Positions 30,929 through 63,616 of a DNA stretch of 64,000 bases are shown here, one piece after another. How positions within the stretch are numbered: position 1 is the stretch's first letter; each line of letters starts with the position of its first letter. Position numbers and translations under genes: made by a program. Under the pieces are notes generated by a model, which was given only the letters and a program-made list of their open reading frames with translations, did no database searches and was not told the origin of the DNA. The DNA comes from Haliotis rufescens (taxonomy: Eukaryota). Location: positions 9,424,001-9,488,000 of the forward strand of contig NW_025963857.1 in NCBI RefSeq assembly GCF_023055435.1, read 5' to 3'.

Positions 30929-31140
30929 CTGTCACAGATCACGGCAGCTTACCTGTCTATCACCTGTTTTCATAGTCCACGTTCTCCTGTCACAGGTCAT
31001 GGCAGCTTACCTGTCAATCAGCTGTTGTCATGGTCGAATGCTCCTGTCACAGGTCATGGCAGCTTACCTGTCAATCAGCTGTTGTCATGGTCGAATGCTC
31101 CTGTCACAGGTCATTGCAGCTTACCTGTCTATCAGCTGTT
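30929..31140. repeat. 57-bp tandem repeat containing the exon 3 donor junction, 4 units
   Basis: The C of CTTAC falls at 30952, 31010, 31067 and 31124 (the real donor). Confidence 0.92.
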
Positions 31141-31270
31141 TACATAAATGCACATGTCCACAGGTGGCAGCAGCATGCAGCGGCGTCCACAACTCGCTGT
31201 CCTTGGCGTTAACATTAGCTCCATGGTCTAGCAACAGCTGCAGTAGCTCTGTGTTGTCATCAATACAACA
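31125..31270 (-). CDS. PPP1R16A: PPP1R16-like coding exon 3 (ankyrin repeats)
   Basis: ttgcag|[48 protein letters not shown](R)|gtaagc; 146 nt, phase 0 to 2. Confidence 0.96.
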
Positions 31271-32189
31271 CTGCAATGGAGGAAACATACACATCAGAGA
31301 TGGAAAGTCAACTGTCAAATGCTAAAAGTAAAAATTGGAAGCCCTAGATTCAAATACTATAGAGATCCTAAGGACCCCAGGATACCCCTTAATCATGCAA
31401 AAATCACAAATAGGTAACAATGTAACAATGGACATGATATATCCTTTATGCGTTGTTGTTTTTGCGCTATGCAAATATGCATATTGGTTTTTATGTTTAT
31501 ACCACCATAAATGCAAGAATATGTTGAAGTCATTTCTAATAATCATATATATGTCAACAAGAAGTAACCATGGTAACCCACTGAAATTAGACAATAATAC
31601 AAAATCAGTCACATCATTCAAGTCAATAACGTAACACACACCATACCCAATCCATTACCGGCCAATTTGGAAACTGTGCCTTATTGTTTTTCTTAGTGTT
31701 TGGACATATAAACGTCGTTTGGCCTAAAACACCAGCTATGAGGTTCCGATTTCCAGACCAAGACTAATCTCAGGTGATGACCCAACTTAAATCTCAGGTG
31801 ATGACCCTAACTTTTTATGAGTACTCACTTTTTGTTACAAAAATAGTTTACAGAAGTTCTCAACAGTAAGGACAAGATATGTTACGGATGAAACTTCATT
31901 ATTCTACTATGATGTGATGTTTCGGTATGCATCCTTATTCCGTTGTCAAGCAAGAGTAAATCATTGCCAATCAAACAGTTTGCCAACATGGTCGTAGGTT
32001 TATAATAAAAATAATACATACCTACCTACCATAGCCTACTCTATTTTAAAAATAGGTGTAATTGAAACCACAACAACATATTTATGAGGTCGTTTTGGTA
32101 GGCTGAGATCTACACCATTATCACTCATGATGAGAGTCATCATCACCACCTAGACTTTGTCGTCCATGGTGGTCACAGTCCAAGTAGGT

Positions 32190-32731
32190 TTCTTTGTTTG
32201 TTGTTTCACCAGACAATCCAGTGATTGATATCATGAGTATCAATCTATGCAATTGGGATACGATGACATGCATCAACCAAGTCAGCAAGCCTGATCACCC
32301 AATCCTCTTACAACAAGCATAAGTTCCTAAAGACCAGACCGCCTCCATGGTCTAGTGGTAGAGCGTCCGCCCAGAGAGCGGAAGGTCCGGGGTTCGATCC
32401 CCGACCGCGTCATACCAAAAGAAGTTAAAAGATGGTACTTGTTGTTACCCTGTCTGGCGCTTGGCATTTAAGGGGCTAAAACAAGGACTGGTCGGCTCAG
32501 AGTCAGTATACTGTGTCTGAGTGGTTTATTCATGTTAAACTGCGGCATGGTATCTCAGTGAGGTAGCACTATAAATCGGCATCAGTCCGGACTAGTACAA
32601 GCAGCCACACAAACACACACACATACATGCACGTCGCTATATAAGTGCAATAATCTTGGACGTGACGTTAAACCCCATTTCACCTCACCTCACCACCTAA
32701 AGACCAATTCTAATGCAGGTCTTCACAGGTA
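32190..32731 (-). mobile_element. Family B copy split by a family D SINE
   Basis: B sequence at 32190-32325 resumes at 32707-32731. Confidence 0.8.
32337..32695 (+). mobile_element. tRNA-derived SINE family D (central domain resembles the MetaSINE type)
   Basis: A box TGGTCTAGTGG, B box GGTTCGATCCC, gtcataccaaaaga..aaaagatggtac central block, TSD CCTAAAGACCA (32326-32336, 32696-32706). Confidence 0.9.
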
Positions 32732-33265
32732 CACACTGTAAGTACAGCAAACACTGACCACTATACATAGCAAACGCTCAGCATGTTCACTGATATCTCC
32801 ATTTCAGTTGAATCTGGATGTTCTTAGACAAACATGAGTGCAGGAAAGTCACATTGAAGTGCCCACTGGAATATTCTGTCCCTTCCTTTACAAGAGAGTT
32901 CTGAATGAGTGTGAGTGTGTACGAGCAGGGAAAATGGCTGTATCTATCACCGCAAGTACCCCCACCAAACTTCGGAAAATAATAATTGATGCAACTATTT
33001 CATATTTATTCTTATACTGCTACTGTATATATGGCATACTACATATCCATCCGATATCAAGAGTTAGATTAGTTATCATGGTTATGTACAGAATATTTCT
33101 CATGTTCATGCACCGTGATGCCAAAAAAAGAAATGATTGTTAAAAAATATATGACACATCAAGATGTTTCTACAATTCCAAATATAGGCCTATAGTGTTA
33201 AATAAAAAACAGAAATTATTCATATTTTTATTCTATTTTACTTCATTTTCAACTATTTCTTATTT

Positions 33266-33409
33266 NNNNNNNNNNNNNNNNNNNNNNNNNNNNNNNNNNN
33301 NNNNNNNNNNNNNNNNNNNNNNNNNNNNNNNNNNNNNNNNNNNNNNNNNNNNNNNNNNNNNNNNNNNNNNNNNNNNNNNNNNNNNNNNNNNNNNNNNNNN
33401 NNNNNNNNN
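33266..33409. other. Assembly gap (N run) in PPP1R16 intron 2
   Basis: Run of N. Confidence 0.99.
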
Positions 33410-33881
33410 AGAATCAATACAACTCATATCTTCATGGCATGCATAGATATCTAGGCACGATCAGCAAACTGTTGCAAGTATGAAATACCCTCTTGACACA
33501 AGGACAACTTTCACATTGCTCAAGATGTTTTTGTTGCAAATGGAGCAGTTAAGGTGAGTGAGTGCATCATATTCTCACTGTACTGCTTCTGGTAAGCTGT
33601 ACATTTCCCCTTTCCCCGAAACATAAAACACAAGATTAAAACCTTGCAGTAGTTTATCATGATGTATTGAGTTCAACATCACTTTTAAAATATATGTATT
33701 ATTCACAGTGTCATATCACTAAAGGAGGTAGATCTAAAATGTTTACCACTTTGGTGACACACATAAGCAGAGGTGTTTCGAATCATAATGAACCTCGGAT
33801 TTGAACCCAATATCATAGGATTCTGGCACACCTAAGGGACAGAACTCTGCACAGAAATTGCAACGCCTGAGACATGTTATT

Positions 33882-61192: not shown

Positions 61193-61587
61193 AAACCTGC
61201 ATAAAATTATATTCACCCACTGATGAAGAAGGGCACTTTCCAACCCAGAGTTCCTTATGGTCAACCTAGTACACATCTCACACAGTCCATTCAACAAATT
61301 ACATGTTTTTCATCTGTTTCATTTTTGAAAAGTCTACACATGAAGATATACATAGGTCTTGAAATGGTGAATAGTGAAACAATGAGAAAATATCTGTCAA
61401 TGTGAAAACCTTTTTCCAGTTGAGTATTTTCAGTGCAGACATTAAACCCCTATACATAACTGGTGATACGGTCACTTTAATGTGTAAAGATATATTGTCA
61501 TCCTCCGTGTCATAGTTACAGTAATATATACCAATAATCATGCAAAAAAATCTTTCAAACCCATTGAAATGCTTCCATTAGGCAAAT

Positions 61588-62240
61588 AACTGGATTGTCT
61601 GGTCCAGATGCGATTATTTACAGACCGCCGTCACATAGCTGGAATATTGCTGAGTGCGGTGTTAAACAAAAAATAAACAAACTGATTTCAGGACAAGTCA
61701 GCAAGATCTTCAGCTGCCTGTGAATAAGCAGACGACACAAACCAGTGACTAAAAGCATGAGCAACAACACACGCCATCAGGCACGATGACATGCAGTCAA
61801 CCAAGTCTCCCAATCAGACCTCAGATCCCCTTAAGAAGCTCTTCAGACAAGCATGGGATCCTGGGGACCTATTCTTCCCCGAAATCCCCTCAAGGGTATT
61901 TCTACACCCTTATATCCAAGAAGATACCACAATGTTGAACAATGTGAAACATGGTCAGAACAAGGTGAGAAACTCACGATGCGCACCTACTTCTGGAATC
62001 TGTGGGATTTCCAAGTTAGACTAGGTCCCCAGCAACCTATGCTTGTCATAAGAGGCGACTAAGAAGGTCAGCTGGTCAGGATCGGTAACTTGATTATTTG
62101 CATCGTATCATCATATCCCAATTGTATGGCTTGATGCTCATGATGACAATCACTGGATTGTCTCAACCAGACTCAATTATCTGCAGACCACTGTCACATA
62201 GCAGGGATATTGCTGAGTGCAACATTAAACAGCAAACAGT
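61588..62240. mobile_element. Cluster of family B fragments (61588-61682 plus, about 61700-61880 minus, 62024-62240 plus)
   Basis: Segmental similarity to family B. Confidence 0.7.
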
Positions 62241-62392
62241 TAGGACAAGCATGGGATATTGGAAACCCATTCTTCCCTGGAATCATCACAGGGATATTTC
62301 TACATCATTTTCCCTTATGAATACAAGCCAGTGTTAGAAATATTACTACTATGGCAAGTAACATGAAACATGGTGAGAAGGTCAAGACTCAC

Positions 62393-62449
62393 AGCCAACT
62401 CCTCCCACAATCAACACCTCCTCGGACCTGCAGTGTGCCATGGCTCGCT
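62393..62449 (-). CDS. OSGEP: OSGEP internal exon
   Basis: ttgcag|RAMAHCRSEEVLIVGGVG(C)|gtgagt; 57 nt, phase 1 to 1. Confidence 0.95.
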
Positions 62450-62589
62450 CTGCAATACACACAGCACTGGTTATAGGAAAAGTACCACATGCTCAAATAT
62501 TCAGATGCAGGTCCTGCTCCTCAGTATCATAAACAATGTGCCATTACTGTTACAGAAACACATCACATGATTAAAAATTTAAGTAATCT

Positions 62590-63616
62590 CTAATCTCGAC
62601 CTGGGATGGATTAGTCTCACCTGCAATCTGCACCTGGGGACGAATTAGTCTCACCTGTAATCAGCCCCTGGGGATGGATTAGTCTTACTTGTAATCTACA
62701 CCTGAGGACTGATGAACCTCACCTGTAATCTGCACCTGGGGATGGAGTAGACTCATCTGTAATCTCCACCTGAGGACTGATGAATCTCACCTGTAATCTG
62801 CACCTGAGGAAGGATTAGTCTCACATGAAATCTCTACCTGGGATGGATTAGTCTCACCTGTAATCTCCACCTTGGGACAGGTAAGTCTCACCTGTAATCT
62901 CCACCTGGGGACAGGTAAGTCTCACCTGTAATCTGCACCTGGGGACAAATTAGTCTCACCTGTAATTTTCACCAGGGTACAGATTAGTCTCACTTGTAAT
63001 CTGCACCTAAGGACTGATGAACCTCACCTGTAATCTGCACCTTGGTACGGATTTGTCTCACCTGTAATCAGCACCTGTGGATGGATTAGTCTCACTTGTA
63101 ATCTGCACCTGGAGACTCAAGAACCTCACCTGTAATCACCATGTGGGACACATTAGTCTCACCTGTAATCTGCACCTGAGGACTGTTGAACCTCACCTAT
63201 AATCTGCACTTGGGGATGTATTAGTCTCACTAGTAATCAGCACCTGGTGACAGATTAGTCTCACCTATAATCAGCACCTGGGGATTGATGAACTTTACCT
63301 GTAATCTGCACCTGAGGACTGATGAACCTCACTTGTAATCTGCACCTGGGGACGGATTAGTCTCACTTGTAATCGGCATCTGGGGGCAGATTAGTTTCAC
63401 TTGTAATCTGCACCTGAGGACTGATGAACCTCACCTGTAATATGCACCTTTTGGACAGATTAGTCTCACCTGCAATCTGCACCTGAGAATGTATTATTCT
63501 CATCTGTTGTCTGCACCTTTTGGATAGTCTCACCTGTTATCTCCGCCTGAGAATGGATTAGACGCACCTGTAATCTGTATCTCGGGACGGATTAGCCTCA
63601 CCTGTTATCTCCACCA
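62590..63616. repeat. About 34-bp minisatellite derived from an OSGEP exon/intron donor junction, about 30 units
   Basis: CTCACCTGTAATCT(G/C)CACCTG...GATTAGT; the terminal unit is the real exon end (ctcac|ctgttatctccacc). Confidence 0.95.

Follow-up and report, generated by a model that had tools for sequence, protein, structure and literature searches.

The stretch of DNA analyzed here, 64,000 nucleotides (nt) from the abalone Haliotis rufescens (NCBI RefSeq assembly GCF_023055435.1, contig NW_025963857.1, positions 9,424,001 to 9,488,000; hereafter, the window), contains three tandem arrays placed at 5' splice sites of two genes, an ankyrin-repeat gene and the OSGEP/Kae1 gene. Their units, of 57, 70, and 34 bp, are unrelated, and all three arrays lie on the minus strand and share one geometry: the first unit straddles the end of a coding exon, taking in about 13 to 16 nt of it, and the remaining units are intronic. 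Such arrays stand at 3 of the 13 coding donors of the window (nine in one gene and four in the other) and at none of the 13 acceptors tested, a count that leaves out the last OSGEP acceptor near 57.3 kb. Several window boundaries were 1 to 2 nt off in the 18-mer recurrence test described below, which should not matter. Within the window, the sequence thus bears out an earlier note on this DNA, which had reported the shared geometry and seen no equivalent at acceptors.

The ankyrin-repeat gene, presumably a relative of PPP1R16/MYPT3 and with Pfam ankyrin matches in its later exons, has its first coding exon at 38399-38944 (minus strand, as for all window features given here; ATG at 38639, donor GT at 38398-38397). 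This exon is supported by its translation and by contigs of runs X3, X7, and X8; its peptide found no match in the PDB and only unnamed clusters in the Atlas. The 70-bp array (3.9 copies, 38143-38412) begins at its end, with a unit made of about 14 nt of exon plus the start of the intron. The three further tandem copies are identical around the junction word, where GG replaces GT in each (0/3 keep GT). Two detached and decayed junction copies (37080-37865; 18/21 and 17/21 matches), with junctions near 37839, where GT is intact, and near 37124, lie past the insertion of an interspersed repeat of very high alignment depth. Three matching GG copies together with two decayed copies beyond the repeat suggest an old array that was recently re-amplified. 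The second coding exon (34465-34535, 71 nt), recognized from sequence and from a 71-nt gap in the alignment of X7 contig 17, carries no array at either junction. The third, which encodes an ankyrin repeat (31125-31270; Pfam Ank_4, E=1.4e-11; donor GT at 31124-31123), is followed by the 57-bp array (3.7 copies, 30929-31140), whose unit comprises 15 to 16 nt of exon end and the intron start. All three further copies hold a donor of the same strength as the authentic one, and translation running past the first donor meets an immediate stop codon. Most of the same intron is filled by a 30-bp array of about 61 copies (28853-30867), which is interrupted by an interspersed repeat and leaves about 140 nt between itself and the acceptor.

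Contigs of X7 and X8, two of four putative-RNA runs (X1, X3, X7, and X8), cover 31124-31270 and 38399-38944, ending at the first donors of the 57-bp and 70-bp arrays. Since the contigs stop there and the 71-nt gap fits exon 2, they appear to splice at the first donors; their source organisms may lack the arrays. In the 5' part of the first exon (38706-38890), every covering contig shows about 11 gap letters against the window, which suggests a small deletion in the allele of this assembly.

The 34-bp array (30 copies, 62591-63615) starts at an internal exon of OSGEP/Kae1, a tRNA t6A synthase (63602-63701; PDB 6gwj_K, E=6.3e-10; donor GT at 63601-63600), further exons of which lie upstream, in locus L372. 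Each unit consists of 13 to 14 nt of exon end and about 21 nt of intron start, and GT is kept in 27 of the 29 further copies. The array occupies about 1010 of the 1152 nt of its intron (about 88%), ending about 140 nt before the acceptor of the next exon (62393-62449). No second locus for the 34-bp or the 57-bp unit was found in a genome search that skipped very common words; a dispersed satellite or transposon as the source of the units, searched for these two, was not found either.

Arrays with a period of at least 12 take up 16% of the window, and minisatellites cover about 13% of the genome sample described next, so the background against which donor arrays must be counted is high. From the 1.33-Gb assembly we sampled 1.63 Mb around profile matches to seven conserved Pfam families (myosin, kinesin, kinase, chaperonin, ALDH, HECT, and DEAD), not random genes, excluding the window's own arrays. 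A total of 340 of 574 hidden Markov model (HMM) rows were kept, a choice made from tables before any array test; the 234 dropped were those of a myosin tandem cluster on C113 and its relatives, kinases and chaperonins with a single exon, HECT and DEAD fragments that resemble repeats, and duplicate contigs. Splice sites were called with self-trained matrices, and the junctions are therefore predicted, not annotated (77 of 87 adjacent pairs are phase consistent). A coding model added 261 sense-strand exons versus 9 antisense at equal score, and it concurred with the matrix calls at 275 of 296 sites per side. A site was scored as spanned when the 18-mer formed by 10 exon and 8 intron bases had tandem repeats on the side of the intron only, and the identical test was run on acceptors, shifted positions, and deep intron. 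Sites with a splice score of <4 or too near a locus end were left out, and two mis-called HSP60 sites (one donor hit and one acceptor hit) were removed after inspection of the peptides.

Spanning arrays were found at 27 of 541 donors (5.0%) and 7 of 558 acceptors (1.3%; P=0.00036), a ratio of 4.1 (2.0-12.0, segment cluster bootstrap; 23 versus 7 of 178 segments), while deep-intron positions gave 505/39,542 (1.28%). The contrast is present in HMM-anchored exons (15/312 donors versus 3/318 acceptors, P=0.004) as well as in ab initio exons (12/229 versus 4/240, P=0.04). A version based on Tandem Repeats Finder (TRF) gave 13/312 donors versus 2/318 acceptors versus a background of 1.7%, or 11/312 versus 2/318 versus 1.06% with periods collapsed. 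The intersection of tandem repeats with splice sites called for in the earlier note therefore places donors well above background density. Two of its observations hold for the window and not for the genome. Acceptor arrays do exist elsewhere: the seven found (L051 at G000:C446:1162473, G000:C24:39874835, L254, L301, L233, L250, and a kinase locus on C605) have periods of 29 to 110 bp and reach about 90 copies; in six of the seven, the majority of copies contain AG, and all fall in the 0.45-0.55 class of guanine-plus-cytosine (GC) content. The exon content of the 27 donor arrays ranges from 5 to 62 nt (median, 20), which rules out a fixed content of 13 to 16 nt as the signature of a mechanism. 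The window itself is a rich yet not extraordinary draw, since the probability of at least 3 hits among 13 donors is 0.024 given the rate for donors genome-wide (0.0005 given that for deep intron). Among L250 and L306 (G000:C17) and L266 (G000:C512), one myosin gene has four donor arrays and one acceptor array, and one HECT gene has three donor arrays. In the region of L206 (G000:C11), a 42-bp array of 18 copies that includes the exon end begins about 106 nt past the donor, as a detached form of the same arrangement.

Such figures could in principle arise from sampling, through the choice of families, errors in calling junctions, or clustering by region, or because young transposon DNA dilutes the deep-intron baseline. 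The survey used 340 of the 574 rows and predicted junctions with the agreement given above, its hits cluster on certain contigs (e.g., C17 and C512), and the interspersed-repeat mask covers just 15% of bases. However, donors and acceptors are compared as pairs from the same genes, their contrast survives the cluster bootstrap, 11 of the 16 ab initio exons with a hit belong to the expected Pfam family, and masked and unmasked DNA give nearly the same rate (1.05 versus 1.07%). Dilution could explain part of the near-exon plateau described below but not the asymmetry between donors and acceptors, and we consider it quite improbable that the result is an artefact.

Arrays are also frequent in intron DNA close to exons. 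Intron positions 30 to 120 nt from an exon are spanned at 3.0% next to a donor and at 2.9% next to an acceptor, and the rate drops to about 1.2 to 1.6% beyond 200 nt into the intron (plateau/deep ratio, 2.3; 1.75-2.9). GC content matters as well, spanning odds rising 1.95-fold per +0.1 GC. The GC-adjusted odds ratio (OR) relative to the plateau is 1.27 (0.75-2.01) for donors, 0.32 (0.06-0.62) for acceptors, and 0.40 (0.31-0.53) for far positions, with similar values under three definitions of the plateau. Thus, donors are not clearly enriched over the GC-adjusted plateau, and acceptors are depleted. The plateau does not consist, for the most part, of old donor-spanning arrays or of the far ends of donor arrays: a test on exon sequence only supports just 2 of 34 near-donor arrays as the former, and 1 of 35 qualifies as the latter. 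Long minisatellites are about 3 to 4 times denser beside both exon ends than in deep intron (2.2% versus 0.6 to 0.8%), and this density may be the more general finding.

Within the arrays, GT in the copies behaves as neutral sequence. Among copies, heterozygosity at GT is 0.045 versus 0.049 at neighboring positions (P=0.23, 21 arrays), and selection to destroy or to preserve the pseudo-donors was not detected in this comparison. GT is nevertheless kept in most copies of 26 of the 27 arrays, 22 of the 27 contain a copy as strong as the authentic donor, and this raises the question of whether the copies are selected as extra U1 sites, for exon definition or for protection against premature cleavage, or as tunable alternative donors. 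In favor of such a role, GT lies closer to unit 1 than its neighbors do (see below), and human IFI6, CBS, and ABCA7 occasionally splice at the nearest copies, according to the available portions of the reports (PMC1557585, PMC5954066). But when the copies are compared only with one another, GT shows no more conservation than its surroundings, the 70-bp array has amplified a GG variant, and in 25 of 27 cases splicing at the second donor would cause a frameshift or a stop, with periods divisible by 3 in 8 of 27, at chance level. A selected function of the copies is therefore very improbable, and the arrays offer little as the route to new splice isoforms that had been suggested for them. Concerted evolution of the inner copies, the boundary unit excluded, is apparent in the 70-bp array, where copies 2 to 4 are identical to one another around the junction and unlike unit 1, and in the 21 arrays compared, where the copy consensus departs from unit 1 at 17 of 378 positions.

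Intron growth, the other consequence proposed at the outset, finds partial support. In total length, array introns do not significantly exceed other introns (1278 versus 1026 nt, P=0.40), yet they contain far less non-array DNA (328 versus 890 nt, P=0.00015), which fits either inflation of short introns or replacement of unique sequence. Tandem DNA totals 65.0 kb in the 306 introns for which both splice sites were called; donor-anchored arrays contribute 13.2 kb of it and account for 3.4% of the intron bases.

Taken together, these data probably reflect locus-born minisatellites, present at about 5% of sampled donors, which persist because the first donor wins, their equivalents at acceptors being mostly purged. 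We propose that the arrays would be born by ordinary slippage or unequal exchange, roughly uniformly along the DNA, and that GC-rich units would then grow into long arrays. Beside an exon, arrays would live longer because a deletion of the whole array must spare the exon, and, thus shielded, they would replace unique intron DNA through re-expansion. Copies spanning a donor would be tolerated if the most upstream 5' site is chosen by position, as in human F7; by analogy with the F7 minigene work, we infer that the same first-donor rule applies in this species. Arrays across acceptors would be lost because the AG copies lying upstream compete, and their use would add sequence that shifts the frame. 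Since short duplications are unenriched at donors, array donors show no G-skew, and GT drifts like its neighbors, the data support survivorship, one of the two options of the earlier note, and do not require a mutational process specific to donors. The duplication geometry is real, recurrent, and asymmetric, and near-exon survival combined with donor tolerance adequately explains its distribution.

Several observations weigh against this explanation. Without adjustment, donors exceed the plateau 1.7-fold (1.08-2.5, bootstrap P=0.013), with acceptors at 0.42-fold (0.14-0.80), and the GC adjustment may erase a real signal because the GC windows contain the array unit. If 10 weakly junction-like near-donor arrays are counted as spanning, the OR becomes 1.8 (1.3-2.5). 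Long arrays (at least five copies) stand at 23 of 541 donors (4.3%) versus 2.2% near exons and 0.58% in deep intron. The identity of long arrays is similar near exons (88 to 92%) and far from them (86.5%), and therefore a greater age of near-exon arrays is not demonstrated. When copies are compared with unit 1, GT is better kept than its neighbors (0.965 versus 0.927, P=0.004); this probably reflects drift of unit 1 at its free positions. Purging at acceptors is incomplete because seven arrays survive, six of them with AG in most copies, and lancelet arrays of this type occur at both intron ends in the part of the report available (PMC3087553). The putative-RNA contigs come from organisms (A to C) that may lack the arrays, contigs lose rare isoforms, and the sample is limited to the seven families.

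Some of these points would favor a donor-specific mutational or growth bias added to survivorship, for instance through R-loops, pausing of the spliceosome or polymerase, repair at exon ends, or U1-bound RNA. Besides the unadjusted excess and the surplus of long arrays, such a bias would fit the upper end of the GC-adjusted interval, which reaches 2.0 to 2.2, and the median of about 20 copies in donor arrays versus 3 in the background. However, the 1.7-fold excess loses significance after GC adjustment, and short duplications of two to four copies are unenriched at donors (4/541, confidence interval 0.2-1.9%, versus 0.70% deep, an interval that permits up to about 2.7-fold); their density is alike, about 0.6 to 0.7%, at donors, near exons, and in deep intron. 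Array donors are slightly GC richer than others, but they show no excess of G-skew (0.065 versus 0.149 at other donors over -15 to +30, P=0.11), and their exon part is less G-skewed than that of other donors. R-loop nucleation would call for a G-rich nontemplate strand, which this sequence proxy does not reveal. The start of the unit varies from 5 to 62 nt from the junction, a similar plateau lies beside acceptors, and array donors sit in array-rich surroundings (local cover, 20% versus 8%, P=0.0003), which points to regional instability. Donor-like motifs as seeds were rejected: antisense decoy donors are spanned at 23/1534 (1.5%) versus 1.1% at all positions, too small a difference to give 5%. 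We therefore regard an added donor-specific bias as unlikely, although a residual one of up to about two-fold may exist. The broader idea that minisatellites preferentially arise at or grow from 5' splice sites, up to about 2-fold over matched near-exon positions and about 7-fold over deep intron for long arrays, is only slightly less doubtful, and we mention it tentatively.

The geometry itself has precedents, contrary to the expectation in the earlier note of an undescribed system. In the lancelet, minisatellites termed mirages were described in Adh3, troponin C, the globins BflGb6 and BflGb9, and PGBD5; in the sections available, they are held to be general in the lancelet lineage, with a proposed part in intron gain (PMC3087553, PMC3902484). 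Those sections present case reports at 5' and 3' boundaries without rates, whereas the abalone data provide measured rates with near-exon and GC controls. The window arrays share some features of mirages and of the F7 repeat: they span an authentic boundary, they place copies of the splice signal in the intron, and, for the 34-bp and 57-bp arrays, the unit is born at the locus. Human variable number tandem repeats (VNTRs) that span donors include F7 IVS7 (37 bp), CBS IVS13, IFI6 (6-16) intron 2, LMNB2 (100 bp), and PDGF intron 4 (81 bp); as far as the accessible text goes, they have the first unit across the junction and identical pseudo-donors after it, and the most upstream site is used (PMC1557585). 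They concern a handful of genes, for which polymorphism and donor choice were established by experiment, whereas in abalone about 1 in 20 sampled donors is affected, as judged from sequence alone. The 25-bp VNTR in intron 18 of human ABCA7 likewise is a donor-anchored array with a large change in intron length, and its second donor is occasionally used; unlike the abalone units, its unit begins at GT without exon sequence. The length of the ABCA7 array alters splicing and disease risk, according to the portion of the paper at hand (PMC5954066). In plant and green-algal introns, tandem repeats are in excess toward the ends, a U-shaped density that resembles the abalone plateau, but these are mostly short motifs placed in relative coordinates, and the parts of that report examined contain no test of donor versus acceptor spanning (PMC3887541). 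The portions available of two further papers (PMC10078293, PMC13050634) contain nothing on donor-spanning rates, and a genome-wide count of arrays at donors versus acceptors was not found in the literature searched, which covers few subscription journals. The geometry is thus already known, and what is new here are genome-level rates with controls, not a new molecular system.

At about 5% of the donors sampled, the splice site is repeated as many as 60 more times, for the most part intact, which offers many natural loci, beyond F7 alone, for testing position-based choice of 5' splice sites. The depletion at acceptors provides a gauge of selection on duplicated 3' sites. At exon ends, the arrays can confuse gene predictors and the mapping of reads. 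Should 5' splice sites prove to be seeds or growth points after all, thousands of introns would carry intact ladders of pseudo-donors amounting to about one-fifth of intronic tandem DNA; this would represent a splicing-coupled turnover of the genome that replaces unique intron sequence, and a natural, genome-scale experiment on how the spliceosome chooses among identical donors.

Other features were noted in passing. In the window, a 62-bp array lies at 35575-36126 (minus strand), and a lone related copy at about 36320-36345 reads as an acceptor and a donor separated by 6 nt. The possible microexon of that length near 36340 was considered and set aside: it is absent from the contigs, whose gap corresponds to the 71-nt exon, and which cannot prove absence. 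One set of kinesin exons recurs with identical scores on G000:C543, C553, and C556:60.04 Mb (L055-L057), which are likely redundant pieces of the assembly. Outside the counts, G000:C113:12.86-14.28 Mb (L004-L031) holds at least 15 tandem myosin-head paralogues with short introns. In the part of OSGEP upstream of the window, the intron at L372:3397-4452 (minus strand) has a 5' splice site that reads as what we take to be a minor (U12-type) donor, and a branch-like motif lies shortly before its acceptor.

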